IMG/VR virus record: IMGVR_UViG_3300025812_000003
Length of the DNA: 64,000 nucleotides
Direction: 5' to 3' (one strand)
DNA from: a virus
The position numbers and the translations under genes are program-made. Under the pieces are notes generated by a model. That model ran no database searches. It saw only the letters and a list, made by a program, of their open reading frames with translations, and was not told where the DNA came from. Positions 4,338-53,048 of this stretch are shown here, one piece after another. Every line of letters starts with the position of its first letter. Within the stretch, counting starts at the first letter, position 1.

Positions 4338-5178
4338 GACATGGATCCCTTTTCTCGGGCATTCGACCGGGATGATCGACTACGGCCTGGAGATGGCGGG
4401 GTTCGAGACCGCCTTCCAGGTCGAGATAGACCCGTTCTGCCGCAAGGTGCTGGAGAAGTACTGGCCGGACGTGCCAAGATTCGAGGACGTGAGGAAATGT
4501 GGACGACACAACCTTGAGCCCGTCGACCTCCTCAGCGGAGGCTACCCCTGCCAGGACCACAGCATCGCTGGGAAGAAGCGGGGGCTTGGGACTCCGGACA
4601 ATCCCACCGAGCGGAGCGGCCTCTGGTTCGAGTACAGCCGCATCATCCGAGAGCTACGACCTCGCTGGATACTCGTTGAGAACGTTTCTCGTCTCCTGCG
4701 CACGGAGGACGGGGACAGGGTGCTCTCCGACCTGGAGGGAGCTGGCTACGCCTGCTGGCCGCTCGTATTGGACGTGGAAGTCCTCGACGCCCCGCACATC
4801 CGCGAAAGGACATGGCTCGTCTGCCGGGAATGGGCTTCCCCTGTTCCCGTTGGTCAGTACCCCGACGACGAAGGCGATCCTGGTCATGGAATGGTCGAGG
4901 GAGAACTTCATTCAGCAGCGGAACGGGCGCTGGCGGAAACGCGCAAACAGTGGCAAGACAGGAAGCATGAATTGGCTCCAGGAAATGGCGGTGAGGGCGG
5001 TGGTGCAGCGGAACCCGAGGCTTGTGCCTACGCCGGAGTTGTGCGAGCAGTATATGGCTATCCCCGTTGGATGGACCGATATCGAGCCTGCGGGAACAGC
5101 GTCAACTTCGTCGTCCCCGCCCTTGTCGGGCAGTGGATCGCACGGGTCGAGGGAAGGAGGGAACATGGGCAAGCATGA
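4319..5178 (+). pseudogene. C5 cytosine DNA methyltransferase alpha chain, frameshifted just after motif I
   Basis: GTG 4319 with AGGAGG RBS gives RHGSLFSGI (motif I), then a stop at 4375. GMIDYGLE, EID, GGYPCQ, ENV, RER and motif X (ACGNSV) continue in the 4312 frame. Confidence 0.75.
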
Positions 5179-5551
5179 CGGGGAGAGGATTCCGGTGGAG
5201 GCGGCGCTGAAGCTGGACGAGGAGACAAAGGCCCCTGGGGCCGAGGACGGGGGGACGATAAGCGAGGTCGACGCCGAGGTGCTGTTCTTCCTGGGCGACA
5301 GGGCCGACGAGGCGGCACGCGGCGTGGAGGAAGCGACCCGGCATGTCAAGGCGGCCGAGCAGGAGCTCGAAATAGCGAAGGAAGATGTCAAGGCCGCCGA
5401 GCGCAGGGTCCTGGAGGTCCAGAAGGTGACGGACGAGTTCACCAAGTCCGCCATCCGCAGGGCGGGGTTCGACCCGACTCTCTTCAAATTGTGTGAAAGG
5501 AAGATAGTTAAGAGAATCTTAAAATCCACTACACCGTCAGGTCCCTTGTGA
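4499..5551 (+). CDS. Overlapping-frame beta chain of the C5 methyltransferase (motif IX), running in frame into the next gene
   Basis: GAGGA..GTG start; RLVPTPELCEQYMAIPVGWTD matches C5-MTase motif IX, which is missing from the alpha frame. Confidence 0.6.
   Translation: MDDTTLSPSTSSAEATPARTTASLGRSGGLGLRTIPPSGAASGSSTAASSESYDLAGYSLRTFLVSCARRTGTGCSPTWRELATPAGRSYWTWKSSTPRTSAKGHGSSAGNGLPLFPLVSTPTTKAILVMEWSRENFIQQRNGRWRKRANSGKTGSMNWLQEMAVRAVVQRNPRLVPTPELCEQYMAIPVGWTDIEPAGTASTSSSPPLSGSGSHGSREGGNMGKHDGERIPVEAALKLDEETKAPGAEDGGTISEVDAEVLFFLGDRADEAARGVEEATRHVKAAEQELEIAKEDVKAAERRVLEVQKVTDEFTKSAIRRAGFDPTLFKLCERKIVKRILKSTTPSGPL
5165..5551 (+). CDS. hypothetical coiled-coil protein
   Basis: Own GGAGG RBS before ATG 5165; heptad-like E/K/A-rich segment. 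Confidence 0.65.
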   Translation: MGKHDGERIPVEAALKLDEETKAPGAEDGGTISEVDAEVLFFLGDRADEAARGVEEATRHVKAAEQELEIAKEDVKAAERRVLEVQKVTDEFTKSAIRRAGFDPTLFKLCERKIVKRILKSTTPSGPL

Positions 5552-5581
5552 GCGCCTGGAGTCCCCACCTCACCTTTGCTC

Positions 5582-6031
5582 TCATGTAGGAATGGAAGTG
5601 TGCTCGGACGGGCGCTGACCTGGTCGAATCTTGGAAAACGTCGAGTACATCGCCACCGCATCCTCTAAGCCCTCGTCCAGGAAGTCCGCGAACATGTCCG
5701 CCACTTCCTTCGCCCAAGCGTCCTTGCCCTTGGCCAGCGTGGCAAACCCTATATCTTTGTCGGCCTCGTCTACTGCCTCCCTGATTTCGTCCGGATACCT
5801 GGTCAAGTACTCGCCGAGGGTCTGGGGCAGGACGAACCCCGGTTCGGGGTCCTCGTCCCACACCACCTTGAGGTCCGCCAGCCAAGCATGGTCCTCGTCG
5901 ATCAGGGGCATCGTCTCCGGCGGTGCGACGGGCACCGGCCCGGGATGGGGGTCCTCCAGCACACAGGGTGCTATACCTACTTTCAAAAGGAATCCACTGT
6001 CGTCCAAGCCCATAGGCCATTTCCGTATCAT
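5582..6031 (-). CDS. hypothetical acidic protein downstream of the CRISPR array
   Basis: GGAGG RBS before ATG 6031 and a GGTATACT -10-like element at 6047-6054. Confidence 0.7.
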   Translation of the reverse strand: MIRKWPMGLDDSGFLLKVGIAPCVLEDPHPGPVPVAPPETMPLIDEDHAWLADLKVVWDEDPEPGFVLPQTLGEYLTRYPDEIREAVDEADKDIGFATLAKGKDAWAKEVADMFADFLDEGLEDAVAMYSTFSKIRPGQRPSEHTSIPT

Positions 6032-6135
6032 GCGTCCTCCAGTTGTAGTATACCTCGGTGTATTCTGATATTTCAAGGATTCTTGAAATTTCGTTCATCC
6101 CCTGTTTTACCCTTGTGCGAACGGGTGAGGTTAGT

Positions 6136-7694
6136 ATTTCATCTACCCAATGAACTAGCGTGGTCTTTTGCCACTCCCATGCTGACAAGGGTCTGCTTTC
6201 GATTTCATCTACCCGATGAACTAGATGGTCTTACCCATCCGGGAAGCTAAGGTTTCATCTGCCCGATGAACTGGAATGGTCTCCACATGGGCTGTCGGGC
6301 GCAGCCTTGCGGCTTCCGTTTCATCTATCCGATGAACTGGGATGGTCTCCGTCACTTTGGGGGCGACGCAGCCACTCAAACACGTTTCATCTACTCGATG
6401 AACTGAAGTGATTTCCACCAGCGTGTCACAGGCTGTTGCACGCCACGAAATTTCATCTACCCGATGAACTGGAATGACCTTTACCTTACCGCTAGCAGCA
6501 TTCGTTTCATCTACCCGATGAACTAGGGTGATCTTCACCGATTGGGGAACTCTGAACTATCCACCTGGAGTTTCATCTACCCGATGAACTGAGACGGTCC
6601 CCACCGAGTGAATCCTTCGCCAACAGCCCTCAACTGTTTCATCTATTCAATGAACTGAGGTGGTTTCCATTGGAGCAGGCGCAAGCATTCGTCAAATTTC
6701 ATCTATCCGATGAACTGGAGTGGTCCGTACTGAACAGCAAGGTCATGGTTTCATCTACCCGATGAACTGAGGTGATTTTTGCTGCAGCGTGAATTCTCTG
6801 GACTTTCATCTATTCAATGAACTGGGGTGGTTTTCGCCACAGCGTGAATCCCATGGACATGGACATGGTTTCATCTACTCGATGAACTGGGGTGGTCTTA
6901 TTAAATGGAGAAACGGTGCCACGAGCTTGAAGAGTTTCATCTGCCCGATGAACTGGGGTGGTCTCCACCACGATGGCGTGCTCGCATCGCCGGTACGTGG
7001 TTTCATCTACTCGATGAACTAGGGTGGTCTTCACCGATTGAGGAACTCTGGACTATCCACCTGGAGTTTCATCTACCCGATGAACTAGGGGAGTCTTCAC
7101 CGAGTCCGCTGTTCTAACCAACCGAGCTATGGTTTCACCTATCCGATGAACTAGGGTGGTCTTCACCTGCTCTTCGAGTTCTTCCCCCGGATGAGCTGTT
7201 TCACCTATTCGATGAACTAGGGTGGTCTTCACCAATCGGCAGGCAGTTGACATTTCCCAAGGAGTTTCATCTATCCGATGAACTAGGGTGGTCTTTACCT
7301 TTACACCATTGACCACTGGTCGATCTGCGTTTCACCTATCCGATGAACTAAGGTGGTCTTCACCTTGGCCCCGTGTATCCCGTGGGCCCTATCGGTTTCA
7401 CCTATCCGATGAACTAAGGTGGTCTTCACCTGCAGGCCATCCGGCTGGAACTCGGGCGGCGTTTCACCTATCCGATGAACTAAGGTGGTCTTCACCAGGG
7501 ACGTTGTCGAGGTTCTTGTTCGAGTGGTTTCACCTATCCGATGAACTAAGGTGGTCTTCACCATCCCGTGGTGTCGACGGCAATCGAGTTGTGTTTCACC
7601 TATCCGATGAACTAAGGTGGTCTTCACCGACGGTCGCCGCCGCCGTGGGCGTCGCCGTGTTTCATCTACCCGATGAACTAGGGTGGTCTTCACC
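6136..7694 (-). CRISPR. CRISPR array, 25 repeats / 24 spacers; repeat (RNA sense) GGTGAAGACCACC(C/T)TAGTTCATCGG(G/A)TAG(A/G)TGAAAC
   Basis: Repeat starts on + at 6136, 6202, 6252, 6318, 6384, 6450, 6504, 6570, 6636, 6696, 6748, 6803, 6868, 6934, 7000, 7066, 7132, 7198, 7264, 7329, 7395, 7461, 7527, 7593, 7659. Mostly a 66-nt period (36+30). Ends GAAAC on the minus strand; degenerate toward 6136. Confidence 0.97.
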
Positions 7695-7741
7695 CGATTC
7701 CTTTTAGCATAGTGTAGACGCTGGACTTAGCCTCGAACTTG

Positions 7742-7800
7742 CCTCAAAAAAACGACCATTGGAGGCCCCGCCGCAGGGCGGGACCTCCAATTTTTTGAGG
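7742..7800. terminator. Long hairpin between the cas operon and the array (possible bidirectional terminator or accessory RNA)
   Basis: Nested pairs cctcaaaaaa/ttttttgagg, ttggagg/cctccaa and cccgcc/ggcggg; T-runs on both strands. Confidence 0.6.
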
Positions 7801-7899
7801 AGGAGGACAAAGGCACAATTATGCGGCCTTTTCAAGTTGTCAAAGAACGCTTGACCGTCCACCGCCCTTTGGCGGCTGGCCCCACTTCCGAGAGTCGTT

Positions 7900-8208
7900 C
7901 TATGCAAAGGCTACGTCGCTTGCGTTGACGTGCCAATCGCCCTTTTTGAGCTTGCCGTCCGGGGTATTCCTGACCTGCCGGTATACCGTGGCCCCGCTTC
8001 CATCCTCGACCTTGAATTCGGAGAATACCCGGTGGCGGGCCTTTACCTCCACCAGCTTCTCCCCACCCTTGTGGCTTCTCGGGAAGACCAAGTACGTCCC
8101 GAACTTCGTTTCGACTATGCGGGGCTTCCCTTCGAACAGGATCGTCCCGGCGACCGTTTTGAGGAACTGAATGCCCTTCTTTACTTCAATGATGAATTTC
8201 GACTTCAT
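7900..8208 (-). CDS. small basic beta-rich protein, last gene of the cas operon
   Basis: GGAGG RBS, ATGA overlap with the helicase stop; no recognisable motif. Confidence 0.75.
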   Translation of the reverse strand: MKSKFIIEVKKGIQFLKTVAGTILFEGKPRIVETKFGTYLVFPRSHKGGEKLVEVKARHRVFSEFKVEDGSGATVYRQVRNTPDGKLKKGDWHVNASDVAFA

Positions 8209-11200
8209 TGGTGCCTCCTTTGAATTTTACTTCGTTTTTTACTGCCCGCTTCCAATTTCTTTCTTGCCACGATCTCCATCATTCCCGTCCCCGGCAGGGC
8301 CTGGGATTCCACGATCAGCCCGGCCTTTTCAAGCAGGGCGTCCAACCCCCTCACCCACCGCCTGCCGTGGGGCTCCCGGATCACCGCCATCCCCCCGGGG
8401 GCCAGTAGCCTCGCCATCTCCAATACCGAATTTCTCCGGTTCTTGGCGAACATGGAGAGGCAGCTCACGATCAAGTCAAACGAGCTGTCCCCGTATCCCG
8501 TGGCGTTCCTATCCCTCGCCTCCACCTCCGGGAACCTCTGGCATGCCTGCTTGGACAGGAAGGGATCGGCGAAGGAGATGCCGTCCAGTCCCAGCCTGTA
8601 GGCCTCGGCGGGGCCCGTGGTCCCGCAGCCGATGTCCAGGATGCGCCTGCCTGTGGTTGGCAGGACGTAGTTGAGGTACACGTCTCTGACGTTCCCGTTT
8701 CTCCCCTCGAATTCCTCGTTCTCCCGTTCGTAGTCAGGCAGGAATATCATTTCCTTCCCCCTTGCAAGGAAGTCTCCCTCCCTTCTGGCCAGAAGCTTGG
8801 CGGAATCGGAGTTCGAGTAGAGGTTGTGCGTCCTGTCCGTCAGGCGGTGCAGGAGGGCCCAGAATTTCTTGTCTTGGGGCTCGGCGCTTCCTGCCGGGGC
8901 ATCTTCAAGGGGAATGGACATCCCGGCCAGTTTCCTTTGGTTGTCCAGCATCTTCCTGACTTCCGCTTCCGGCACCTCCCTGCGCAGCTCTCGGGGAACG
9001 TCTGCGTTCATGACCAGGAAGTGCGTCTTCTTCCTGCCCAGCACCCTCCCGTTGCGGTTGTGGCTATACGGAATGTTGTCCGCCACGAAGTTGACTATCA
9101 GCACGCCGCCTTCCATGAACGCCGAGTCGGGGCGCACGATCCTCCGGGCGAACTGCTCCAGTTGGGCATAGTGCCAGGGCATCCCGAAGATGAACTCCAT
9201 GTCGGAAATTTTGTGGATTCCGTCTATCCCCGTCGTCATTGGGGCGCTCGCCACGATGACGCACTTCGGGTCCCTTTCCATCATGTCGAGCTGTTTGAGT
9301 TCCCCGGTATAGAGGTATGCCCTTCTTCCCAGCTTTTTCCTCGCCCATCCCGCCAGCAGCGCCACAGGACCGTCTACGAAATGGGTATAGAGGATGGGCC
9401 TCGACGCCTTCCGGAGGAGCCGCATCAGCAGTGGGCTGTCCTCTATTTCTTTGAGCGCCCCCTTGATGAGCACGCATTCCGCCTGCGGCGTCGGCTTGGT
9501 GGTCCTCGGGAGCGAGGACAGTAGGGATTCGCCCAGCAGGTAATGAGTGGTGGTGATTCTGGTCCCCACGGAGTCCGCACCATCCTCTTGCCCGTGCTGC
9601 TCGAATACCAGCGTTCCAGTGGGCTTCCAGTCGACGGCTTTCGGCGGGGGGAGGAGGGAGGGCCGGATGTAGAACCGCGATCCCCTGGACAGGGTTTCGT
9701 ACCGGAGCTTGAGGGCCGCCGAGGCATCGTCGTCCATGGATGTATACTTCTTTCCGGTGAATAGTTCCAGCATCCTATATGCCTCCCTCAGGCTTATCCT
9801 CATGAGAGTGGCGGTCATGAGATAGAACAGGCATTCGGGCGGCATGCTCTTACGCAGGAACGAGAGGTTCCTGAACCGGTTTCCTTCCTTCTTTCTCTCC
9901 GCAAGCAGGGCCTCGTCCAGGCCCTTGCTTCCCGTCCAGTTTTGGAGCTCGTCCACCACCATCATGTCCCATCCTATGGCGGCAAGCCGCTTCACCAGCC
10001 CATCCGGATTGTTCTGCACGTCATATTCGGACACGAACACGTAGTTCCTTTTCCCCTCTTCCATGCCCTCCAGATCGTCGCAGTCCGTGAACAGGAAATT
10101 GGCATCTCCCTCCCCGACGATTCTGGCGTGCGCCTCCCACTGCCTCGTCCTTTCCCTTCCCCTCTCCCTGTTCGTGAATTTGTCCAGCGTGGACTTGGTG
10201 GCCAGCACCAGGACGTTCCGGAATTCGTGTTCCATGGCCAGGGCGAACACGGTGCGGCTCTTTCCTATTCCTGGCTCCCCGAGGTTGAACAGGATGCGGT
10301 CCCGTTTCAGGGCCTCGAAGGATTTCCAGACGATGTGGGCTACCATCCAGTCCCCGTGGTATCTCCTCACGTATCTTTCGGCCCCCTCCCATTCTCTCAG
10401 AAAGCTGTCCCGGAACATTGGAACTGCTTCCTTCATCCCTTTCTTCAGGAGCTTCGTCCCCCCATGGCTCAGGGCCTTCCAGAGAAGGGAGATGTGGTCG
10501 ATCTCCGAGGCCCTGACGAATTCCTGGTTGGACCAGAACCCCTCCAGGGTTTCCGCTGCCTTCCTGAGTTCCCTCAGGCGTTCCAGGATGCACCCGTCCG
10601 TAGTGATCCCGGGGGCCTCGCAGCTCCTTGCCGTTCCCTTCCTCGGTCCCGATGGGTCGTTGACCAGCGCCGCTGCCTCCTCGGGGCTCATCGAGAGCAG
10701 GAGGTCCACGCATTCGTTCTTTCCCACCTTCCATCTCCTGCTCAGGGCCGCAAGGAACCCGTCGAGCGCCAGCAGCCTGATGAGGTCGGCCGGATTCTTT
10801 CCGTGCAACATGTGCCCCAGGGTAAGAATCTTTTCCGCCATCTCCTCCACCGACCAGCACGGCACCCCGAAAAGGTCGGTCCATCCTTCCCAGTTCGGGT
10901 ACGTTGTCGGGTCCTTGGGGGATCCTGGGGGCAGCATGCCCTTCTGCAGGAGCCATCCGTACCTCTCGGTCGGGAGTTCCGAGATTTCTTCGAGCCCCGC
11001 TGTCTGCCCGAGGCCCTTTGTCGCCTTCCTTAGCTCCTCCAGCGTGACGAGGTCCACCGACTGGAGGAGGCACCGGGAGGACAGGAAATTGGAGTCGTCG
11101 GAAAGGTAGCGATCCGTGGCGTCGGCGTCGTGCAGGCAATTCTTCTCCCCGCACGGGCACTGCACGCCGTAGAGCACCTCGACCCGCCCATCAGGAACGG

Positions 11201-11321
11201 GGATTGACCGGGGGCCGGTCGTGATGAGGAGAGTCCCCCGCCTGTCTCCCCCCTTGAAATGTCTCGGGGAGACGAACGAGTTTCCGACCAACCTTGGCAG
11301 CGGGGATATCGTCAGTCCCAT
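8205..11321 (-). CDS. SF2 helicase fused to a C-terminal class I SAM-dependent methyltransferase (CRISPR-associated)
   Basis: Walker A GEPGIGKS, Walker B MVVDELQ, motif III MTAT, motif V TTGIDG, motif VI QFARRIVR. MTase motifs ILDIGCG and DSSFDLIVSCLSM..EMARLLAPGG. N-terminal P..P..YPNWEGWTDLFG unit. Start uncertain (ATG 11321, TTG 11342 or downstream). Confidence 0.85.
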   Translation of the reverse strand: MGLTISPLPRLVGNSFVSPRHFKGGDRRGTLLITTGPRSIPVPDGRVEVLYGVQCPCGEKNCLHDADATDRYLSDDSNFLSSRCLLQSVDLVTLEELRKATKGLGQTAGLEEISELPTERYGWLLQKGMLPPGSPKDPTTYPNWEGWTDLFGVPCWSVEEMAEKILTLGHMLHGKNPADLIRLLALDGFLAALSRRWKVGKNECVDLLLSMSPEEAAALVNDPSGPRKGTARSCEAPGITTDGCILERLRELRKAAETLEGFWSNQEFVRASEIDHISLLWKALSHGGTKLLKKGMKEAVPMFRDSFLREWEGAERYVRRYHGDWMVAHIVWKSFEALKRDRILFNLGEPGIGKSRTVFALAMEHEFRNVLVLATKSTLDKFTNRERGRERTRQWEAHARIVGEGDANFLFTDCDDLEGMEEGKRNYVFVSEYDVQNNPDGLVKRLAAIGWDMMVVDELQNWTGSKGLDEALLAERKKEGNRFRNLSFLRKSMPPECLFYLMTATLMRISLREAYRMLELFTGKKYTSMDDDASAALKLRYETLSRGSRFYIRPSLLPPPKAVDWKPTGTLVFEQHGQEDGADSVGTRITTTHYLLGESLLSSLPRTTKPTPQAECVLIKGALKEIEDSPLLMRLLRKASRPILYTHFVDGPVALLAGWARKKLGRRAYLYTGELKQLDMMERDPKCVIVASAPMTTGIDGIHKISDMEFIFGMPWHYAQLEQFARRIVRPDSAFMEGGVLIVNFVADNIPYSHNRNGRVLGRKKTHFLVMNADVPRELRREVPEAEVRKMLDNQRKLAGMSIPLEDAPAGSAEPQDKKFWALLHRLTDRTHNLYSNSDSAKLLARREGDFLARGKEMIFLPDYERENEEFEGRNGNVRDVYLNYVLPTTGRRILDIGCGTTGPAEAYRLGLDGISFADPFLSKQACQRFPEVEARDRNATGYGDSSFDLIVSCLSMFAKNRRNSVLEMARLLAPGGMAVIREPHGRRWVRGLDALLEKAGLIVESQALPGTGMMEIVARKKLEAGSKKRSKIQRRHQ

Positions 11322-11368
11322 TAGTTTGTTTCGCCCATGCAACGAATCAGGCGACCCTTTGTCCGCCG

Positions 11369-13921
11369 TCAGGCGCTTGTGGCGGCGGCCAGATTCTTAG
11401 CTGCATTCTCCGTCTTCTTGAAGCGTGCGTGACAGTTGGGGCATTCGAGCCTGTTGTTCTTCGTGACGCCGAATGCGCCGAAGTAGCCGCAGGAGTTGCA
11501 CGTCTGTACGACTTCGAGCGACGCCGCTTTCGTGACTGCGACCTCCACCCCGTGATTCCGTCCGATGTTTCTGAGGATGGCGGTGAAGTCCCCCAGGGCC
11601 AGCCGCTGCCTGTATTCGTGGAACATTTCCGTCTTCTTGGACTTTTCCCGGCTTTCCCCGATCCCCTTGACGTCCATGTTCTTGATTACGACCTTCCCGT
11701 AACCATTGTCCGCCAGCGTCTGCATGATCAGCGTGCAGACCTTCTCGTACTCCTTCTCGCGGCGACCGGTAATGCGCCCGCTGATGAAGTTGAACAGCTC
11801 TCCGGCCTTGGCGTCCTCGGTCGCCCATTTCACGATTGCCGCCCTGGCCTCGGGATGCGCCGCCATGAGGATGTCGTCCTTGAGCAGGCTTTTGATGCCC
11901 GAGGAACGGCTTCTTTTGAGCCAGGGAGGAACATCGTCGCCCAGCTCCTCCATGAGGTGTTCTTTGAGGCGATCCTCGCAGAGGTCCCGCTCGGCCTGCA
12001 TCTCCTTCTTGTACTCGAACGTGTCGGTTTCCTTCTTGCCATGCTCCCGGTTCCGCCTGCCCCACCGAGTTTCGCCCAGTTCGGCCACGAAGGGCTCGGG
12101 GTCGAAGGAGAAGAGCCTGACGCCTGTTTCCTTCTCGGTCACGATGCGCATGTTTAGCATCTTCGAGGAGGCCGCGTCCAGGACGTCCATCTTGCTTTCG
12201 AAGTCAGAGGCGCTCTCGGTCCCCCCTTCCGGCAGGCCGCTGGAAGCAAGCCACTTGCCCGTCATGCCGCTCCATTCGGCAGCCGATAGGAAACTATGTC
12301 GCAGCTCGGGGCGCTCGCCGAGGACGCCCGCGACGGCGTATGCCAGCATCGGGGGCCTCGGGTTCATGTTTGCGAAGATCGCCATCGTCCTGCCTTCGGC
12401 GGGAAGGCTCAGGGTGCCGATCTGTGCCAGGTTCTCCCTGGTGCTCCATCGCAGGTCGAGGCCTGCGGTGCTCCCCTTCACGGGCGCAGGGGCGGGCAGC
12501 TCCAGCGATAGGGAGAGCGAAATCCTCCCCGTCCTTTCCTTGAAGGAAAGCCACCATTTCTTGATGTAATGGCTTCCGGCCTTCTCCCCGAGGTTCGACG
12601 TTATTAGGACCCCCACGGTAAAGGGCTTCAGGCCCTTTCCGCCGGAGAATGTCAGGGGACGTAGCTGCCGGTTTCTCCAGCGCTTTCCCCGGCCCTTGCC
12701 CGCCTCCTCGTGCCCGCTGTCCTGGGGGTCTACGGGAGGGCCCAGCGTCAGGCCTAGTACTTCCTGGCCCGCAAGGAAGCTTCGTATGGTGGTGGCCTCC
12801 GAGTTCCCTTGCTTGTTGCGGTTGGCAAGGGTGATGTTTCCGCTTTTCTCGTCCTCCTCGTAGCGCAGCTTCGGGAGCCCCTTCCATGGCTTCTCGTCGT
12901 TGGTTATGCGCTGCTTCAAGGTGCATTTGATGTTCTCGAACACGACGTCCCGCTCCGGCAGGGAGGAGAACATCTGCCGGACCCCGTCCAGGCTGGGGGC
13001 CTTGTTCGGCCGCTGCTTCCATCCTTCCTTGTCGTCGAACACCATCTCCCTGAGCGGATATTTCCCTGCGCGCACGTCCGGGTCGTTGCGCCAGCATTCG
13101 TCCCAGTGGTTGATCATGCGGAAGAGCGGGGTGAAGTCGGTGGGATATTGGGCGAGGAACTTGTCAATCTCCTCCAAGAGGCCTTCGGGCACGGGATGCT
13201 CGTGCTTCTTGTCGTGCCGCAGGTTGCTGGCAACCATCCGCAAGGAGACAGCGGACAAATCCGTCTTCGCCTTTTCGCTGAGCTCGTTCTTGTAGGAGAA
13301 CTTCCGGCCCTTGCCTTGACGCATGTTGAACTGGTCGAGGACCTCGACCACGTGAGTGGCGAATGTCCCGAGTTCCACGGCCGGGATGCTCTGCGTGCAT
13401 GCCCGAAGGGCTTCCTTGAACATGTACGCCATGTGCTGCCTTGCCTTTCTGACCCTCGTCTTGACGCCTTCTAGCCACGCTGGAATCTCACTGGTGGCTA
13501 TGCCCACATGGTGTAGGTAGATGGGCATCAGCCAACCCTTCGATATGGAGGTCGAATCTCTTTTTATCCCTGTGTTTCCGGAGATCACGAAGACGGTTTC
13601 GGGATGCTTCTTGGTCGCCACTCGCTGCTTGAAGGTCGCCAGGCGTTGGCACGCCTTTCCGTTGACCATGTAGGGCGTCTCGGAGGCATAGAGGACGATC
13701 TCGATCTGTTGCCCGGCTTCAACCATCCCGTCCATCGCCACGGGGGAGTCGAGCACGGCCCTGTTCCTCCCGCTACCGATGGACAATTTATGTGTTTTCG
13801 GGAAAAACGCAATGGTTCCCGATGAAAATTGTCTGGACTTCGACCTATCTATTCGGTCGGCATGCAGTCGGAGTTCCGTCCCGTCCCATGTCACCTTCGT
13901 CCATTCCGCCTTTTTGAGCAT
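11369..13921 (-). CDS. cas12: Type V (TnpB/Cas12-family) effector, ~850 aa, predicted nuclease-inactive RuvC
   Basis: RuvC-I AGLDLRW, bridge helix GRREKEYEKV, RuvC-II region VVIKNMD, zinc finger CNSC..CPNC, C-terminal TENAAKNL (cf. DxNAAxNI). GGGAGG RBS before ATG 13921. Co-oriented with the CRISPR array. Confidence 0.85.
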   Translation of the reverse strand: MLKKAEWTKVTWDGTELRLHADRIDRSKSRQFSSGTIAFFPKTHKLSIGSGRNRAVLDSPVAMDGMVEAGQQIEIVLYASETPYMVNGKACQRLATFKQRVATKKHPETVFVISGNTGIKRDSTSISKGWLMPIYLHHVGIATSEIPAWLEGVKTRVRKARQHMAYMFKEALRACTQSIPAVELGTFATHVVEVLDQFNMRQGKGRKFSYKNELSEKAKTDLSAVSLRMVASNLRHDKKHEHPVPEGLLEEIDKFLAQYPTDFTPLFRMINHWDECWRNDPDVRAGKYPLREMVFDDKEGWKQRPNKAPSLDGVRQMFSSLPERDVVFENIKCTLKQRITNDEKPWKGLPKLRYEEDEKSGNITLANRNKQGNSEATTIRSFLAGQEVLGLTLGPPVDPQDSGHEEAGKGRGKRWRNRQLRPLTFSGGKGLKPFTVGVLITSNLGEKAGSHYIKKWWLSFKERTGRISLSLSLELPAPAPVKGSTAGLDLRWSTRENLAQIGTLSLPAEGRTMAIFANMNPRPPMLAYAVAGVLGERPELRHSFLSAAEWSGMTGKWLASSGLPEGGTESASDFESKMDVLDAASSKMLNMRIVTEKETGVRLFSFDPEPFVAELGETRWGRRNREHGKKETDTFEYKKEMQAERDLCEDRLKEHLMEELGDDVPPWLKRSRSSGIKSLLKDDILMAAHPEARAAIVKWATEDAKAGELFNFISGRITGRREKEYEKVCTLIMQTLADNGYGKVVIKNMDVKGIGESREKSKKTEMFHEYRQRLALGDFTAILRNIGRNHGVEVAVTKAASLEVVQTCNSCGYFGAFGVTKNNRLECPNCHARFKKTENAAKNLAAATSA

Positions 13922-14018
13922 ATGTATCCTCCCGTCCTTACTATACACCGTTGGACGAGCAATTTTCGGGAATTTTTCAAGTTTTTCGGTATACTATCAT
14001 CTGGGGTAGGGAGGCGGC
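13922..14018. promoter_or_regulatory. Divergent AT-rich promoter region
   Basis: TATAGT on minus (13940-13945) toward cas12 and GGTATACT on plus (13988-13995) toward 14019; both genes have a GGAGG RBS. Confidence 0.55.
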
Positions 14019-14369
14019 ATGCCAATCAAGCCGAGGACTTGCAGGAAATGCACGAAGAACTTCGTACTGATGCCCGGGAAGCCCGGCAACGCCAACGACT
14101 GCCCATCGTGCTCCGGGGAGGACGTCCCCCTGGTGATGGCGAAGGTGAGCTGGGAGGGCAAGCACTGCATGATCCTGGAGATCACCGCCGACAGGGCGGA
14201 GGCGGAGCGGTTCAACCGTGCCCAGGCCAGGGGCGGCATGGGCCCGCTGTCGGCGATGTGCGGGAGCGGCGAGGACAAGGACGGCCAGGAGGCGTCGAAG
14301 CAGAGGACGGGGGCGGGGGTCGGGGACCTCTACCGGTCGAGGCTCAACGAAAAAAGAAGGGTCAAATAG
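14019..14369 (+). CDS. small zinc-ribbon protein
   Basis: CRKC..CPSC; GGGAGG RBS. Confidence 0.7.
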   Translation: MPIKPRTCRKCTKNFVLMPGKPGNANDCPSCSGEDVPLVMAKVSWEGKHCMILEITADRAEAERFNRAQARGGMGPLSAMCGSGEDKDGQEASKQRTGAGVGDLYRSRLNEKRRVK

Positions 14370-14402
14370 GCGAGGGTCGACTTCCGGAACAGTTTCAGAA
14401 GT

Positions 14403-14666
14403 TCAAATCAAGGAACGGATGCTGACCGCCCCGTAGGACGCCGACGTGGGGATGGCGGTCGCCGCCCGTGCGGCGGCATGGCGGACGAGGACGGGCCTAT
14501 GGGCGTCCGGGGAGGGCTCCCAGGCCGCCTCCTTGTCGTCCTCGGGCGCGTCCCGGAGCCAGTCGAGTAGGTCACCCTCCTCCTCCCGGTCCACGAGCGT
14601 GCGCTCGTCGAGGCCGTAGTCGTCCGCCAGCCCCGCCATGAACTCCTTCCACGGGAGGAAGGACAC
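14403..14666 (-). CDS. hypothetical acidic protein
   Basis: Coding-like GC3 bias; end of the minus-strand operon; start uncertain. Confidence 0.5.
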   Translation of the reverse strand: MSFLPWKEFMAGLADDYGLDERTLVDREEEGDLLDWLRDAPEDDKEAAWEPSPDAHRPVLVRHAAARAATAIPTSASYGAVSIRSLI

Positions 14667-14682
14667 CGCCTGCCCCGCCCTT

Positions 14683-15288
14683 TTAAGCTGTGGTCGCATT
14701 GAAAACCCTCACTGCTTTGTGCTCTCTCATGGTTCGGATGCACTTTCCGATTTCGACCCATTCGTCGTAAGAAAACAGGTTGGACTTTCCTCGATTACAG
14801 CGAGTACAACAGACAACCACATTGTCCTTGGTATAGCCTTTCAGGTTGTCTTTGCGATCAAGGTAGTAGGCTTGTCGATGTCCTGGGGATCTCAAATGGA
14901 TGTTGTGCTTAGTCCATATGATGGGCACATCGCAATAATGACACTTGTTTATCCTTGTGAACTCCAGAAAATCTTCGTAGGTTATGTCAGTTCCCTTTCC
15001 CGGAACCTTGCAGACATAGAGAAAGCTGCTGTAAAGGGACTCATATGGGCGTTTTCGTGTCAGTTTCGACACATTCTCCCTTCTATAGCATCCGCAACTG
15101 ATGGTATTTCTCCTGTGGTTTCCGTGAAGATTGCCAATGGGTACGGTCACTACATTCCCGCAATCGCATAGGCATTCCCAAGTTACGGGCTTGTAGGAAA
15201 CCACCTTTACGGGCCGCAACCTCCCGATCCTTTCCTTTGATAGATCAAGGATGGTTTTACGACCCTTCAAGTCCTTTAGTTTCTCCAT
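14683..15288 (-). CDS. free-standing HNH homing endonuclease
   Basis: WECLCDCGN..SCGC N-terminus, CHYC, LDRKDNLKGYTKDNVVVCCTRCNRGK; low GC. Confidence 0.88.
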   Translation of the reverse strand: MEKLKDLKGRKTILDLSKERIGRLRPVKVVSYKPVTWECLCDCGNVVTVPIGNLHGNHRRNTISCGCYRRENVSKLTRKRPYESLYSSFLYVCKVPGKGTDITYEDFLEFTRINKCHYCDVPIIWTKHNIHLRSPGHRQAYYLDRKDNLKGYTKDNVVVCCTRCNRGKSNLFSYDEWVEIGKCIRTMREHKAVRVFNATTA

Positions 15289-15289
15289 T

Positions 15290-17659
15290 TTATTTAATGT
15301 CAGAATCCCTGACTCCAGTAATGAAACGATACTTCAGGAGTAGAGATTCACTGTCCAAGCTCTCGGCCCTAACAAATACCTCATACACAAATCCTCCATT
15401 TAGGGTGCTATTCCAGACAGCACTTTGCGCCCACGAATCGTTGATGCAACTTTGAATTTCGCTGTCGTTCAGCTTGTCCACCAGGTGCTTTACCCGGCTG
15501 CCCATCCCCTCCTGGCCCATGAGCAGGCCCGACATGCCGGAGAAGTCCCGCTGCTCCACCTGGTCGAGCTGGAGGGAGCCGGTCCCCGGCACCTTGTCCA
15601 GCGGCGGCCGGCTGGTCACCTTCCATGCGCTGATGAACGTGGCCGCCACCTCCGCCATGACCTTCTTGAGGAACGCCCCGAACTGCTCCTTCTCGCCCCC
15701 GAACGCCGCCGCCTGCTTGGCGACCACGTTCATCGCCCCGCCCTCAGGGCCCATGTCGAAGTTCTGGTAGAATTCCTCCTGGAACATCGGGCCCCTGATC
15801 TCGTCCTCAGTCCGGAACGGCTTGCCTTCGAGCACCTGCGGCTTGAAGTCCCTGCCGAGGCCGACCGCCCCCGGGGAGGTGCTGACGTAGCCCAGCTTCT
15901 TCATCCCGTCAAAGGACGCCTCGATGGCGATGTCGAGCTCGGGGTCCTCGTGCGGGTCCCCGACGATCCCCCCTATCGTGGACTCGTTCGTCCCCTTGGC
16001 GACGTCCACCCCGGAATCTACCATGGGGGCGTTCGTGGCGTTGGGGGAGTCCACCAGCTCGTGCTGGAGGTCCGGATAGAATTCCCTGAGCGCCTGGCCG
16101 GGAAAAAAGAAGTTGAAGCCCGCCTCCTTCCCCGCCTTCCCGTCCTTGCGGACGTCCTTTTTCGACGCGACGACCCCGCCCTCCGTTGGCCCCATTTCCC
16201 TTTCCTTCGTCCCCCCGGAGTCGAACTGCACGGTCCCGCCCCTGGCCAGCGTCTCCACCGGGTCCTCGACCTGGTAGTTCTGGTGCCAGTAGACGTTCCC
16301 GTCCGGGTCGCTGATGATGGGGGCGTCGGTCAGCGCCCCGAGGTCCTCGGGGGCCTCCCATCTCCAGCCATTTTCCGTGGCCTCCGCCAGCAGGTGGTGC
16401 AGGGCGTCGACGGTCGCCTCGTTCGCGAGGGATGCCGCCAGCCTCTGACCCTCGTCCGTGGCGGACACCTGGAGGCGTCCGTAGCCGTCCGTGGACAGGG
16501 TCACCAGCCGCCCCGTGAACCCCATATCCTCGGGCAGGTGCTCTTTGACGTCGTCGAGCGCCCCGCCCTCGCCTTCGGGCCTCATGGCCCATTCCTCCAG
16601 CTTGTCCGTGTCCGCCGTCTTGAGCCCCTCGGGCTTCTCCCCGTCGATGTAGCTCTTGTCGGAGGTGACGGCGACGGAGCCCGGGGCGGAGAAGTCCGGC
16701 CCCCACTTCTCGGCCGCGGCCTTGATGAAAGCCTCCGCCGTCTCGGGGGACGAGAAGCTCGCCTCCCGCTTCTTGCCCTTGAGCACGAACTCGACCTTGT
16801 TGTCCTTTGCCATTTTCTTCTCCCTATTAGACTGATGGAAAGCGAAAAGCTCGTCTTCCTCCGCCCCGGCAAGAAGTTCCAATGCCCTCTGACGGGATAC
16901 CTTTTGCGGGGGCTCGTGCAGGCCGTCCCATATTTTTTCGTATTCCGTTTGATGCACTTTGCCTTTCATGAAATTACGAGGCAGGTTGTTGTTTATGACC
17001 AATGTTTTTACATCCACGATATCCTGGCCTCGTACCTGCAATTTGATTTCGGCACCCTTGTAGCTGCCCATAAAGCTCCCTATCTTCAAATCCAACAAGG
17101 TGGGCAAATCGCAAACTTTCGGTTCCGTGTTGATTTCCTGCGGTATGGGGTTGGGAACGTCAGTCCCTTTTATCTTCCATCCGCCTTGGATTATGTCTAT
17201 CTTCACGTTGTTTTCGGGGTCCGAAACTGCTATCGGATTGAGAATCTTATACCCATTCTGGATCAGGATGTACCTCGCTTGCCTGGCATTCGACACGGAC
17301 AAGTCGATGTCCTCGGTGTTGCGGGCATATCCGTGCTCTTGCACGGCAATTGCCCCCACGACCAGGGTGCCCACGCCGTTGGTTCCGAGGATTTTGACGA
17401 CCTTGTTCAAGGCATCTTCCTTGTTACCACTGAATTTCCGTATATGCACGGCCTCTTTGTGGTTGAATCCCGGCTGCGACACATTATCGGCCATGGAAGC
17501 CACTTGTTCCTTTTCGTCGTCCGCCAGCCGCATCCACGGACGGTCGAAGAAATCCACTGGGAACCTGTGGCTTTGCGTCCTCAGCCATCCGATACGAAGG
17601 TGGCCTAGCTTCAGGCCGTCCCATCGCCTTCCGACCTCCGTGTTGTCGATGGCATCCAT
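15290..17659 (-). CDS. Modular protein: N-terminal nucleotidyltransferase-like domain in frame with an acidic putative virion-associated protein (second start at 16813)
   Basis: VVGAIAVQEHGYARNTEDIDL NTase motif. GAGGA RBS before ATG 17659 and GGGAG RBS before ATG 16813, with no stop between them. Confidence 0.7.
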   Translation of the reverse strand: MDAIDNTEVGRRWDGLKLGHLRIGWLRTQSHRFPVDFFDRPWMRLADDEKEQVASMADNVSQPGFNHKEAVHIRKFSGNKEDALNKVVKILGTNGVGTLVVGAIAVQEHGYARNTEDIDLSVSNARQARYILIQNGYKILNPIAVSDPENNVKIDIIQGGWKIKGTDVPNPIPQEINTEPKVCDLPTLLDLKIGSFMGSYKGAEIKLQVRGQDIVDVKTLVINNNLPRNFMKGKVHQTEYEKIWDGLHEPPQKVSRQRALELLAGAEEDELFAFHQSNREKKMAKDNKVEFVLKGKKREASFSSPETAEAFIKAAAEKWGPDFSAPGSVAVTSDKSYIDGEKPEGLKTADTDKLEEWAMRPEGEGGALDDVKEHLPEDMGFTGRLVTLSTDGYGRLQVSATDEGQRLAASLANEATVDALHHLLAEATENGWRWEAPEDLGALTDAPIISDPDGNVYWHQNYQVEDPVETLARGGTVQFDSGGTKEREMGPTEGGVVASKKDVRKDGKAGKEAGFNFFFPGQALREFYPDLQHELVDSPNATNAPMVDSGVDVAKGTNESTIGGIVGDPHEDPELDIAIEASFDGMKKLGYVSTSPGAVGLGRDFKPQVLEGKPFRTEDEIRGPMFQEEFYQNFDMGPEGGAMNVVAKQAAAFGGEKEQFGAFLKKVMAEVAATFISAWKVTSRPPLDKVPGTGSLQLDQVEQRDFSGMSGLLMGQEGMGSRVKHLVDKLNDSEIQSCINDSWAQSAVWNSTLNGGFVYEVFVRAESLDSESLLLKYRFITGVRDSDIK

Positions 17660-18670: not shown

Positions 18671-21600
18671 CTATCTCCAGCCCGCCTGGGTCGGCAAGTG
18701 CTCCTGGATGTCGTCGAGCGCCCCGCCCTCGCCTTCGGGCCTCATCGCATAATACTCCAGCACCTCGTCGTCGTCGAGGTCCGCCGCCACGGCCTCCAGG
18801 AACCACTTCATGTGCTTCACGTTGCCGACTATCTGGCCGACGTTGGCCGCCACGTCGTAGATGCGCTCGTCGTCGTTGTCGATGAGCTCCTGGGCGAGCC
18901 TGAGCCTCATTTCGCCCTCGGGCGTTAGCCCTCCCTCGCTTGCCCTCTTTCCCGGGGGGGCCACTATCCCCTTCTCGATCAGCTTCTGCTCGTCCTCCAT
19001 GCTCATGTTGCTTTCTTCCGGAATCACGTTCCTCGCCTCGGACTCCAGGCCCGGGCCGCCCACGACGTTCAGGCCGTCGTCCTTCATCCCTTCGATGATG
19101 GCGTCGGCATACCCGTGCTCGATTGCCGCCCCGCCCTCGTACCACTGCCAGTCTTCGAGCTGGAGGTTCTCGTCGATCCATTCCCTGGCGGCGTCGCTTT
19201 TCGGCCTCAGCAGGACGATTGAGCCCAGGTCCTCGACCTCGACGTCGGCCTCCCCCTCGGGGGCGGGCGCTCCTTGCCCGGCCTTCTTCTTGGCGGGGGG
19301 CTCGTTGTTCAGCCCGCCCTCACCGGCCTGCGGGGCCTTGGCGGGCTCCTCCCCCGTCACTTCCGGAAGGTTGGCCGCGAGGTCCGCCAGGTCGCCCAGC
19401 ATCGCCCCCATCCCCATCTCCTCGTCCAGGTCGTCGCCCGTGGCGGCGCATCCCACCTTCGCCGCGTCGATGGGGTCGACGGTGCCGGAGGCGTTCGGGT
19501 TGTCCACCGGTCCCGCCTCGGGCCCGGCATGCCCGACGTCGGACGACGTGCCCAGATCGGCCTGCTTGGCGGCAAGCCTGGCGGGGCCGCCCGGCCCAGC
19601 GGCGGGACCCAGTATGTTGGCATAGTCGAACTTGCCATCGGGGGCATCGGAGTGGAGCTCCGGAATCCTCGCCCTCCCGCTCCAGAATTGCACCCTGTCG
19701 CCTTCCTTGAGGGGAAAGTCCGCCGCATCCCATAGCGTGAAATACCTCGTGCCGTCGATGGTCACCCACGAGTATTCCGAGCCGTCCTCACTGCGTCCGG
19801 CTTCGATTTTCTCGACGGTCCCCTCCCGTTCCGGGGGCTCCTGGTCGCTCTCGCGCACCGACTGGCGCAGTTCGCCCGGCACGTCCGAGCCGGCCGGGAA
19901 GCCGTCCTCGTCCGTAGCTGCCAGCTTCGCCGGGTCGACCGTCTGGGTCGCGGCGGGGTTGTCGGCGAGGGACGACTTCGCCCCCTTGTCGGTCTCCGAC
20001 CTGGCCTTCGCAACGTCCGGGGCCACCCCGTCCGCCGCCTTGGCGAACTTCCCCGGGTCCTCCGTCCTCGTGGCGTCCGGGTTGTCGGCGATGGAGTCCT
20101 TCGCCCCGTGGTCGAGCCTGGACTTGGCCTCGGCGATGTCGGGCGACACGGACTGGTCGGCCTTCTTGGCGGCCAGCTTTTCCGCATCAACGGTCTGCGT
20201 GGAGACGGGGGTGTTCGCCAGCTCGGCCTTGGTCTTGCCCTCCAGCCCGGACTTCGCCTTAGCGACGTCCGGGGCGACGTCCTGGTCGGCCTTTTTGACC
20301 TTCGCCTTGCCGTCCCCCACCGAGATGGCGATGGCGACCTCCGGGTCGTCCTTGGCCTTCTCCGAGGCTCTGATCCCGGCGTGCTCCAACGCGTCGTCCC
20401 ATATGCTCCCGAAGGACTGCACCTGGATGGAGCGCTTCTTGTTCAGGGCCTTCTCCCTCCTGGCGGAGGCGGCCCTGGAGCGCTCGGAAACGGCGGCCTC
20501 GTCCCCGTCCAGCGGGCGGGCGATCTCCTCAGCCACCGCGTCGGCGGTGCCCTCCTCGCCCTTCCTGGCCTCCGCCCTCTGCTGCACCAGCTTGGAGTGC
20601 CCCGTCTCGGCCCTGCGGACCTCGGCATGCGACGCGGCCTTCGCCGTCTTGGGTTTCTCCTTGTCGGTCTTGGGGTCCATCGCCCCCTCGCCGCCCTTCT
20701 CGTTGGCGATGTTGTCCACAGTGTCGGCGGTCTTGCGGCCCTCCCCGACGACCCCGTAGTCCTTCGGGTCCACGGAGCCCGTCACCAGGGGATTGTCCTG
20801 CCATGCCGCCTCGGCGCTCTCGTATCCGAGCCGCCTGGCAAGGCCCCACGTGTCCGAGTATGCCTTGAACTCCTCGAACCCGCCATCGTAGACGTTCTGG
20901 AGGCGATCCTCCCACGTCGCCCGATGGCTGCTCGCCTCCTTCTTGTCATCCTTCTTCTCGTCATCCTTCGTGCCGGGCAGCTTCCCTTTGTTCTTGCAGA
21001 AGCCGCACTCGCAGCCCTTGGCATGGGCGGCCGCCTTTTTGAGCGATCCGCTGTGGGCGTGCATGTCCTGGAGGTGTGACTTGGCCGCCTCCTCGCTCTT
21101 GTGGCTGGAGAGTATCTTACCCGTCTCGTGGGACTTCACGCACCATTCCGCCAGCTCGCCCTTTGAGTTCTTGTGGCCCTTGCAGTGCTCGACGTAGGAG
21201 ACCTTGACGAACGCCGCCCTCTTCCTGGGGGGGAGGCCGATTGCCTTTCCGGCAAGCTCCCGCCAGGTCGGGGCGTAGAACTCGTCGTAGCTCAGGCTGG
21301 TCCTTCCCGGCGCGCCGTCGTTCGCCCACGGTCCCGCCGTCTTGGCGTCGCTGGCCTTCTTCGAGTCCCGGGCCGCCAGCGAGTTCGTGTAGCATGCCCG
21401 GCAGAGGCCCCACTTTTTCCCCTTGGAGTCCGTGTACTGCTCGGTCGCGTCGTTCGGGCAGGGCCTGCTGCCGTTCGGGTTCTGGCACTTTGCCGCCCCC
21501 GTCTTGGGGTTCGGGTCGGGGGCCTTCTCGGGCTCCGTCCCGCGGGTGTTGGCCTTCTCGGCGTCGGTCTTGGGATGGATGATGTTGGCTTCCCCGCCCG

Positions 21601-23176: not shown

Positions 23177-23254
23177 GTCACTTACCCCCTGCCGCACCCG
23201 GCCTCTTTGGTCCGACCGGATGCTTGTAGATTTCGACGATGCGTCTTCCGAGCC

Positions 23255-37957: not shown

Positions 37958-38265
37958 ACTTCGAAGCCATCATGTTCCGCGACGACCAGGTCCCCGAGGA
38001 CTACGACCTGGGCGAGCCGCCATCAGAACTATTGGCTCCTTTGGAAGGGGGATGGGACGGGGGTTGCGACGTGGGCATCTTTGACTTCCTGGAGGACGAG
38101 GAAGAACTGGACGACTCGGAGCCGACGGGCCACGAGGAGAGGGACGACGACTACCTCCTGGAGGAACTCGAAGTCGGCGAGGACGGGCACATCGTAGGGC
38201 ACCGGAAGCGGAAGAAGAAAGAGGAAGAGGCGGAAGACTCGGTATTTTGTTGGTGGGATGAATGA
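37954..38265 (+). CDS. highly acidic hypothetical protein
   Basis: GTGA overlap; D/E-rich. Confidence 0.6.
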   Translation: MNFEAIMFRDDQVPEDYDLGEPPSELLAPLEGGWDGGCDVGIFDFLEDEEELDDSEPTGHEERDDDYLLEELEVGEDGHIVGHRKRKKKEEEAEDSVFCWWDE

Positions 38266-44134: not shown

Positions 44135-44818
44135 ATGGAAAAGTTCAAAACGCTCATCATTGATCCTCCCTGGCCATACGAAAGGGCATCGGGAAACAGC
44201 AAACTTTCGGGGTATGTAATCCAGGAAGGAAACTCCAAGTATAAGACCCTCACCATCAGTGACTTAAAAAAACTTCCTATCAACGATGTCATGCACCCAG
44301 ATGAGGCATACGTATTCCTCTGGACGACCGGCTCCTTTACCGAGGATGCCTACGGGTTGATGAGGGCGTGGGGATTTATCCCGAAAACCCAGTTGTGCTG
44401 GTGCAAGAGCGACAAAGGATTGGGGGTCGGGTATTGGTTCCGGGGCAACCATGAGCTAGTGCTGGTGGGCAAGAGGGCCGCCGCTCCGTCCATTCGAACT
44501 GGAGAAAGTTCCCTCATCATCCATCCGAGGATAGGGCACTCCACAAAGCCCGCCACCCTCCATGAAATAATTGAAAAAAGGCGGGAACCCTATACCAGGA
44601 AGGACAAGAACGGGGACATCCTTGGCGTCGTTCCTACCAGCTTTCCCGGTCCTTTTTTGGAGATATTTGCTAGGGAGAAACGGGACGGTTGGACCGTTCT
44701 TGGCAACGAGGCACCAGGGGACCTTGGGGACATCAGGGACACGTTGCCCGAACTGATAACTAGAATCAACAGCAAGCCTGCGGACACTCCCGTAATCACG
44801 AATGAAGTGGCCCCATGA
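44135..44818 (+). CDS. MT-A70 family adenine methyltransferase
   Basis: IIDPPW, FLWTT, AWGF, GVGYWFRGNHE, HSTKP, LEIFAR. Confidence 0.92.
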   Translation: MEKFKTLIIDPPWPYERASGNSKLSGYVIQEGNSKYKTLTISDLKKLPINDVMHPDEAYVFLWTTGSFTEDAYGLMRAWGFIPKTQLCWCKSDKGLGVGYWFRGNHELVLVGKRAAAPSIRTGESSLIIHPRIGHSTKPATLHEIIEKRREPYTRKDKNGDILGVVPTSFPGPFLEIFAREKRDGWTVLGNEAPGDLGDIRDTLPELITRINSKPADTPVITNEVAP

Positions 44819-53043: not shown

Positions 53044-53048
53044 GATTT

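Follow-up and report, generated by a model that had tools for sequence, protein, structure and literature searches.

What can a type V CRISPR effector do for a phage once its RuvC nuclease site has lost two of its three acidic residues? The question was raised by an open reading frame (ORF) in the IMG/VR virus record IMGVR_UViG_3300025812_000003, of which a stretch of 64,000 nt was analysed as a whole (hereafter the window, to which all coordinates and strands refer). The ORF encodes a Cas12m-related effector; next to it lie the genes for a superfamily 2 (SF2) helicase fused to a class I S-adenosylmethionine (SAM)-dependent methyltransferase and for a 102-aa protein, and then a CRISPR array (Table 1). 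The reading that we consider probable, on the strength of sequence comparisons, is that the effector is guided by CRISPR RNAs (crRNAs) from this array, binds its targets without cutting them, and likely acts together with the helicase-methyltransferase and the 102-aa protein. The first-pass annotation of the window had dealt with the effector; the array, the helicase-methyltransferase and the 102-aa protein that accompany the dead effectors were not covered by it.

The effector and its RuvC site

Database copies of the effector begin at M10 (codon 13919-13921) and are 850 aa long, compared with 859 aa for the open frame. An exhaustive HMMER search of 1.84 billion cluster representatives returned 53 proteins at an expectation value (E) of 0.001 or better, one of which was the effector's own copy; the other 52 were about 16-29% identical to it. 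The catalytic columns were read from a MAFFT alignment of these 52 homologues and the query (alignment A2). The RuvC-I column contained D in 33 of 43 filled rows, the RuvC-II column E in 36 of 46 (and K in 2 of 46), and the RuvC-III column D in 42 of 44 (T in 0 of 44), with a D-E-D triad in 29 of the 38 rows in which all three columns were filled. The effector lacks this triad of the nuclease-active type V subtypes and reads D498/K756/T846. A D/K/T triad with two acidic residues lost had been proposed in the first-pass annotation; all three codons named there proved exact and the A2 columns agreed with it, and the zinc finger, described as intact, indeed retains C817, C820, C836 and C839.

The AlphaFold2 model of the effector, built from the 53-row alignment, had a mean predicted local distance difference test (pLDDT) score of 80.6, with values >90 across most of residues 620-859 and low confidence in an insert at residues 535-617. 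In the model, D498 lies inside strand 493-504, K756 closes strand 750-756 and T846 opens the last helix (845-858); so placed, the three residues occupy the canonical triad places of the RNase H fold.

Profiles and model together assign the effector to type V (Cas12/TnpB superfamily), with a predicted C-terminal split RuvC fold into which a zinc-ribbon (TNB) domain is inserted. The PADLOC Cas12u1 profile matched residues 643-855 (E 1.8e-11), followed by PADLOC Cas12f (E 6.7e-11) and NCBIfam IS607_TnpB (E 3.6e-05), while the match of Pfam Cas12f1-like_TNB (E 4.6e-4) was under its cut-off. When a profile of 31 family members, seven of them short-clade rows (see below), was compared with solved chains (profile A1), it matched Cas12m (6.3e-72), UnCas12m4a (2.4e-48) and Cas12m2 (4.1e-33) over nearly the whole chain length. 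The four top Foldseek matches of the effector model were Cas12m2 or Cas12m (E 1.2e-16 to 8.6e-13), ahead of Cas12f, and the best 43 of the 66 matches at E 0.001 or better (to E 1.8e-04) were all Cas12, TnpB or Fanzor proteins. By sequence profile and by predicted structure, the nearest characterised kin of the effector is Cas12m. The likeness to V-U1/Cas12m suggested at first pass was thus borne out by PADLOC Cas12u1, by profile A1 and by the top four structural matches.

A quick maximum-likelihood tree of 36 rows (midpoint root, long branches) separated a short clade (12 rows, 517-599 aa) from a long clade (24 rows, mostly 650-860 aa, with two shorter members of 564 and 573 aa), both with a Shimodaira-Hasegawa-like approximate likelihood ratio test (SH-aLRT) value of 100. 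The tree holds no named Cas12m sequences, and the short clade is taken as Cas12m through the matches of profile A1 to the solved chains. The effector fell in the long clade, sister to the short one, on a branch of length 1.9; with its 850-859 aa, it has neither the clade membership nor the compact size (about 500-620 aa) of Cas12m. The earlier remark that the protein is larger than its kin therefore holds, but the N-terminus left unassigned there is not private to it, as a beta-rich N-terminal region of ~130 residues aligns across the whole long clade.

Most long-clade members retain D-E-D, and the other altered triads in this clade read HQD, HQD, HQE, NPD, ESD, EED and A/K/-. Among them, P0025, P0032 and P0051 form an H-Q-D/H-Q-E clade that recalls the HQK triad of Cas12m clade 1, and P0028 (A/K), which stops short of the zinc finger, falls among D-E-D and E-E-D rows. 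The triads given for Cas12m clades are HEK, HQK, HDD, DED, NED and DND (PMC10442227), and D/K/T is absent from those listed; gradual inactivation within V-M has been remarked in a survey (PMC10691335). As the effector belongs to a separate long clade that mostly keeps D-E-D, its inactivation is independent of that in the HDD, HQK and HEK groups of Cas12m. The E-to-K change is shared with two other dead effectors, P0044 and P0060, and a clade of the three was not rejected (p = 0.289 in the approximately unbiased test), so the loss of RuvC may be one event in a small lineage. An independently inactivated lineage, as first proposed, is consequently upheld with respect to the Cas12m clades, but the window effector perhaps shares that single event with these two relatives.

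The mimivirus Fanzor2, with the catalytic triad Asp324/Glu467/Asp501 (PMC11832414), was the best and only single-sequence match of the effector among solved chains (phmmer); K756 pairs with its G416 and T846 with its D501. Fanzor2 also illustrates how a RuvC site can be rewired, since it is active with a rearranged RuvC-II in which the glutamate has moved past strand 5 (Glu467; PMC11832414), and large TnpB clades are predicted to have the same type of site (PMC10691335). A rewired nuclease, in which D498 and a relocated acid (E812, D759 or E847) still support some cleavage or nicking, would accord with these precedents and with the position of E812, which sits in a helix of the AlphaFold2 model, 6 residues past strand 802-806. 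However, Glu467 of Fanzor2 follows its strand by 2 residues, a place taken by K808 in the effector, and it aligns with S810, not E812. The features of the rearranged RuvC-II (RIIr) of Fanzor2 and TnpB were accordingly not found, the effector having S810 at the Glu467 position, T846 at RuvC-III, where 42 of 44 relatives carry D, E812 only nearby, and K756 at the canonical RuvC-II place, where Fanzor2 has G416. D759 matches an extra D of short-clade relatives, three residues past their catalytic E (ENLD, EKLD) and present in addition to it, and E847 corresponds to E502 of Fanzor2, which stands beside the catalytic D501 and outside the triad. The whole zinc finger and RuvC-III segment is, moreover, gone from the sister proteins P0044 and P0060. 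We regard residual cleavage by such a site as very improbable. The D of NMD and the E of TEN had been named at first pass as residues whose presence in the active site would speak against inactivation; the alignment gives no support to either (D759 and E847).

Putative partner genes of the RuvC-dead effectors

The two genes next to the effector recurred beside dead effectors at two further loci. The first (L005) is a 7.6-kb metagenome contig that carries P0044, one of only two A2 homologues with K at RuvC-II. The second (L006), a 98-kb viral contig found by scanning viral contigs with the helicase alignment, encodes P0060, an effector of 856 aa that is 52% identical to P0044. In both proteins, RuvC-II has K and RuvC-I has K or T, and the chain stops before the zinc finger and RuvC-III. 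The gene order in L005 and L006 is helicase-methyltransferase, 102-aa homologue, effector and array, whereas in the window the effector comes first, followed by the helicase-methyltransferase, the 102-aa gene and the array. The helicase-methyltransferase of the window is 31% identical to that of L005 over 951 columns (E 2e-101) and 35% identical to that of L006 (E 3e-106), and the small protein is 47-49% identical to its copies in L005 and L006 (48% for L005, E 5e-29), while the effector matched those of the two loci at 3e-4. When the window ORFs of at least 80 aa were compared with L005 and L006 at E 1e-5, only the two partner genes matched, indicating that the three loci do not share a syntenic phage backbone. 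The conserved part of these three otherwise unrelated phage loci consists of the three genes and the array.

Both partner genes were absent within 10 kb of the D-E-D relatives on three viral contigs (L002, L003 and L004), which count as two independent loci because L002 and L003 are near-identical. In L004, a 78-kb viral contig, the stretch 10001-15146 contains the D-E-D relative (753 aa) and, after it, Cas4, Cas1 and an array with some 10 repeats, so the long clade includes complete adaptive systems on phages.

The helicase-methyltransferase is 1038 aa long when read from the ATG at 11321, as in its database copy P0059. Its helicase part is predicted to be of SF2 type from its Walker A, DExx motif II, SAT-like motif III and motif VI arginines, and it matched the phrog_62 DNA helicase family (E 4.5e-12). 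The methyltransferase part has the Gly-rich motif I and the motif II acid of a putative class I SAM-dependent enzyme with a Rossmann-like fold, and it scored above the Pfam cut-offs for Methyltransf_8 (29.3 bits, cut-off 27) and Methyltransf_11 (29.6 bits, cut-off 21.2). Walker A, motifs II, III and VI and the SAM-binding motifs were invariant in all three helicase-methyltransferases. Family and profile scans detected no nuclease domain in the protein, and its match to PADLOC typeIV_DinG (E 0.0078) was sub-significant.

The 102-aa protein formed six 90% clusters among 5.8 billion proteins and had no solved-structure or family match. Its Atlas model is similar, at a template modelling (TM) score of 0.5-0.6, to beta-tent folds (cereblon/Yippee, GFA, DUF427), a lead only, and a complex prediction for this protein with the effector scored 0.24, below the mark of 0.32. 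Word-index protein searches with the effector and the helicase-methyltransferase matched only these proteins themselves, and scans of viral contigs with either as a single query gave no match.

It could be argued that the effector is a plain roadblock in the manner of Cas12m, and that the helicase-methyltransferase and the 102-aa protein serve an unrelated phage function such as anti-restriction or replication. Cas12m silences by binding without partners (PMC10442227, PMC11013384), the helicase part belongs with a common phage helicase family (the phrog_62 match above), and the window also encodes a second, SNF2 helicase and an MT-A70 methyltransferase. Yet dead effectors are accompanied by this gene pair at three loci that otherwise show no matching genes, the set is kept despite its rearranged order, the partners are missing near the D-E-D relatives, and they are better conserved (31-49% identity) than the effectors themselves. 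We therefore consider a plain roadblock with two unrelated neighbours unlikely.

The array, the phage population and the proposed mode of action

An array adjacent to the effector, as in type V systems, was found on the effector's strand, with 25 repeats whose hairpin is shared by the arrays of relatives. On the - strand, the 3' end of the repeat folds into a hairpin (-9.8 kcal/mol) that has a stem of 6 pairs, a loop of 5 nt and a tail of 2 nt, and the + strand folds otherwise; the repeats of L003, L004 and L006 fold into the same 3' hairpin and end in ...CAAC. In L002-L004 (D-E-D relatives) and L006 (dead relative), the array lies downstream of the effector and on its strand. The repeat fold and the arrays of the relatives thus indicate that the array is transcribed on the effector's strand. 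The alternative of transcription on the + strand, where a terminator follows the array, was considered and rejected, since it disagrees with the fold of the repeat, with the arrays of relatives and with the decay gradient described below. As the terminator-like hairpin precedes the array on the - strand, transcription of the array would require either read-through or a separate promoter within 7695-7757. The layout of L005 is similar, with a terminator-like hairpin and then a TATAAT box between the P0044 stop and the first repeat (7354-7455).

No anti-repeat of more than 9 nt was found elsewhere in the window, and Rfam gave no match within 5000-16000. Viral contigs held no match to the degenerate repeat pattern, and metagenome contigs, a set that may omit near-identical records, no match to the exact repeat. 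Spacers compared with the window itself gave chance-level matches only. Spacer 7365-7394 resembles a motif repeated in the IMG/VR record G001, in the same phage's genome but outside the window, with 24 of 30 positions identical at 20901-20930 and 21-23 of 30 at eight further sites between 19526 and 20642, all on one strand (loci L009, L010). The mismatches cluster at the repeat-proximal end, and the motif may be a repetitive coding stretch; the resemblance is a hint that the guides may aim at the same gene in related phages.

Five identical repeats stand at the leader end of the array (7329-7628). Toward 6136, the repeats become degenerate, the spacers shrink to 16-24 nt and one repeat has an indel (near 6202), and a copy of spacer 6540-6569, identical at 28 of 30 positions, is present at 7036-7065, marking a segmental duplication and an old array end. 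Such decay would suit a relic that has lost its nuclease and adaptation genes and drifts without present function. So would the lack of adaptation genes (Cas1, Cas2 and Cas4 were not found among the 33 window ORFs scanned with Pfam), the truncated and duplicated spacers, their identity in four sequencing runs from 2014 to 2020, and the very long branch of the effector (1.9). A relic is at odds, however, with the identity of the five leader-end repeats, with a zinc finger and fold retained at high model confidence, and with the same gene set, its enzyme motifs invariant, in three deeply diverged lineages. It also fits poorly with the state of the effector in the population, where the protein from M10 (P0055) was seen as an intact 850-aa frame on 70 contigs, the longest of 250 kb, with variants that differ by 1-3 residues. 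We judge a functionless relic to be quite improbable.

The effector locus was present in 20 DNA sequencing runs from peat, wetland or soil (2014-2020), with 99-100% of the sampled words of 5900-14100; any of these runs may be the source sample. In the four runs compared, no other letters, indels or joints were seen, and every spacer piece was present, at depths of 115-1300. The locus and its spacers are thus fixed in a phage population of high abundance. Among GenBank phages, no match was obtained at the DNA or the protein level. The GC content at third codon positions (GC3) of the effector gene (0.80) was similar to that of neighbouring genes. The nearest record, G001 (95 kb, with an estimated completeness of 53%), is 100% identical to the window over their overlap, which starts at about 23763, and does not contain the effector locus.

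For a guided binder that works with its two partners, the following course can be proposed. The effector would mature and carry a single crRNA (the repeat's 3' hairpin and then the spacer) without a RuvC site, as Cas12m does. Pre-crRNA processing in Cas12m is RuvC-independent (PMC10442227, PMC11013384), and the loss of RuvC therefore need not harm guide maturation. The complex would form an R-loop on DNA flanked by a protospacer-adjacent motif (PAM) and remain bound without cutting, as kinship with Cas12m and the lost residues suggest. Perhaps through the 102-aa protein, which may bridge the proteins or bind the displaced strand, the bound complex would then load the helicase-methyltransferase; starting at the R-loop, its helicase would unwind or translocate, and the methyltransferase would move a methyl group onto nearby nucleic acid or protein. 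Action of the partners at the bound site is most likely, to judge from gene linkage and the intact motifs. The outcome would be a silencing of a competing phage, plasmid or host gene that is stronger or longer-lasting than a roadblock alone, and the array would serve as a fixed guide set that is not growing. We tentatively entertain, as a possibility, the more specific picture of an RNA-guided methylation or remodelling machine, in which the dead Cas12 and its fixed crRNAs would deliver the helicase-methyltransferase and an adaptor to DNA sites, where a methyl mark would be written or proteins stripped at the target, without cutting.

Several observations weigh against a guided binder that acts with these partners. 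The link between the effector and the helicase-methyltransferase rests on three loci only, and a pattern scan of 185,579 species genomes found no relative of either the helicase-methyltransferase or the 102-aa protein. Large helicase-methyltransferase fusions are common in phages (phrog_62), and the genes could be neighbours for another reason. The predicted methyltransferase weakly resembles small-molecule, lipid and rRNA methyltransferases (best E 1.8e-07). A strong predicted terminator separates the three genes from the array, and the apparent decay at one end of the array and its lack of turnover would also fit a relic. No viral contig contained an exact match to the 24-nt seed-side part of either of two spacers, and none of the sequencing runs listed with the locus is an RNA run. 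Finally, the acidic residues D759, E812 and E847, which lie close to the lost positions, may also count here.

Table 1. Positions of the effector, its partner genes and the array in the window.
Feature	Coordinates	Strand	Remarks
Cas12m-related type V effector	11369..13948	-	859 aa open frame from GTG
RuvC-I D498	12455-12457	-	codon GAC, within GLDLRW
RuvC-II K756	11681-11683	-	codon AAG, within VVIKNM
RuvC-III T846	11411-11413	-	codon ACG, within KKTENAA
Zinc finger C817-x2-C820 ... C836-x2-C839	11432-11500	-	CxxC...CxxC intact
Sigma-70-like promoter match TTGGCA, 18 nt, GATGAT	13996..14025	-	9/12, consensus match only; upstream of effector gene
SF2 helicase fused to class I SAM-dependent methyltransferase	8205..11342	-	1045 aa from TTG
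Helicase motifs			Walker A G351-x-G353-K354; motif II D457-E458-x-Q460; motif III A504-T505; motif VI Q723..R726-R727
Methyltransferase motifs			motif I G898-C899-G900; motif II acidic D919
102-aa protein	7900..8208	-	no known family; co-conserved with helicase-methyltransferase
Intrinsic-terminator-like hairpin	7758..7791	-	15 pairs then T run, strong; between the three genes and the array
CRISPR array	6136..7694	-	25 repeats of 36 nt, mostly 30-nt spacers; repeat on - strand GGTGAAGACCACCTTAGTTCATCGGATAGGTGAAAC

Elsewhere in the window, the SNF2-related helicase mentioned above lies at 38258-40231 (phrog_62, E 7.6e-73) and the MT-A70 methyltransferase at 44135-44818; neither is part of the fused helicase-methyltransferase. 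A Cys-rich ORF of 201 aa (14683-15288, - strand), directly upstream of the effector operon, had weak PADLOC matches to PtuB-type HNH proteins (E 1.5e-4). An ORF of 1508 aa (18671-23197, - strand; GC3 0.91) had no Pfam family and a marginal match to phrog_33891, of unknown function (E 1.7e-4). Nine tRNA genes (Tyr, five Leu and three Ser) are clustered on the + strand at 52955-54183; tRNA gene clusters are typical of large phages. An exact 38-nt direct repeat (51332-51369 and 51398-51435) has a spacing of 66 nt, the period of the array, and a sequence unrelated to it.

Comparison with known systems

Nuclease-poor CRISPR systems have repeatedly recruited helicases, as with Cas3, CasDinG, RecD and the Cas12m-Cas3 hybrid; to our knowledge, no natural CRISPR effector works with a methyltransferase. 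Multi-component Cas12 systems known so far include Cas12m with Cas3, Cas12 with IscB and a helix-turn-helix (HTH) protein, Cas12a2 with TPR-DUF3800 and UvrD, and transposon-linked forms (PMC10910872, PMC12669027, PMC11656645), and a 2026 preprint presents what it describes as the first phage Cas12m, a 610-aa protein with D-E-D. No description of a Cas12 with an SF2 helicase-SAM methyltransferase partner was found in the accessible parts of the literature searched, the 2022 Cell survey of virus-encoded CRISPR-Cas systems and supplements being outside the search. Within that literature, the effector and its partners appear to be a rare, undescribed type V variant.

If the link between the genes is functional, the system would have a new RNA-guided output, methylation or ATP-driven remodelling rather than cleavage, one that originated in phages highly abundant in peat and wetland metagenomes. 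Such a link would also explain why this lineage could keep the gene after losing the RuvC site, and two relatives even after losing the whole zinc finger together with RuvC-III, and the binder and its enzyme, compact and naturally paired, could be tested as a tool. Should the methylation reading be true, the locus would represent a type V subtype of its own, and it would be the first 'epigenome editor' among natural CRISPR systems. Even on a more modest reading, the effector would add to the Cas12m-like binders a clade of larger proteins that is borne by phages, with D/K/T as a new triad.

In Cas12k (of type V-K CRISPR-associated transposons) and the TnpB-derived TldR repressors, a RuvC-inactivated TnpB/Cas12 scaffold has been put to new use, as an RNA-guided DNA binder that recruits or blocks other machinery. 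The effector shares such a scaffold with them, but their gene contexts (transposase, sigma-factor or flagellin genes) were not found among the window ORFs scanned, and its sequence kin is Cas12m, not Cas12k. Type IV-A systems with CasDinG (PMC11656645) likewise combine a nuclease-free crRNA-guided complex with a helicase in the silencing of targets, are carried by mobile elements and are often without adaptation genes; unlike the window system, they lack a methyltransferase, and their effector is a class 1 multi-subunit complex, their helicase a member of the DinG family. Cas12m-Cas3 hybrid loci (Altae-Tran et al. 2023, Science; PMC10910872) likewise join a cleavage-deficient Cas12m-type effector to a helicase-containing partner, which is thought to add an interference step beyond binding (PMC10910872). 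Their partner is a type I-C-like Cas3 with an HD nuclease, whereas that of the window effector is an unrelated SF2 helicase-methyltransferase with a 102-aa protein.

Cas12m itself (type V-M, formerly V-U1; Cas12m2 of Mycolicibacterium mucogenicum, GoCas12m) is the best profile and structural match of the effector. The two share altered RuvC triads, occurrence on mobile elements and an array whose repeat is of the single-crRNA type, without an anti-repeat. The effector is larger (850-859 aa, compared with about 520-615 aa), as it adds the ~130-aa N-terminal region of the long clade, and it differs from Cas12m in its D/K/T triad, its co-conserved helicase-methyltransferase and small protein, and its carriage by a large phage.

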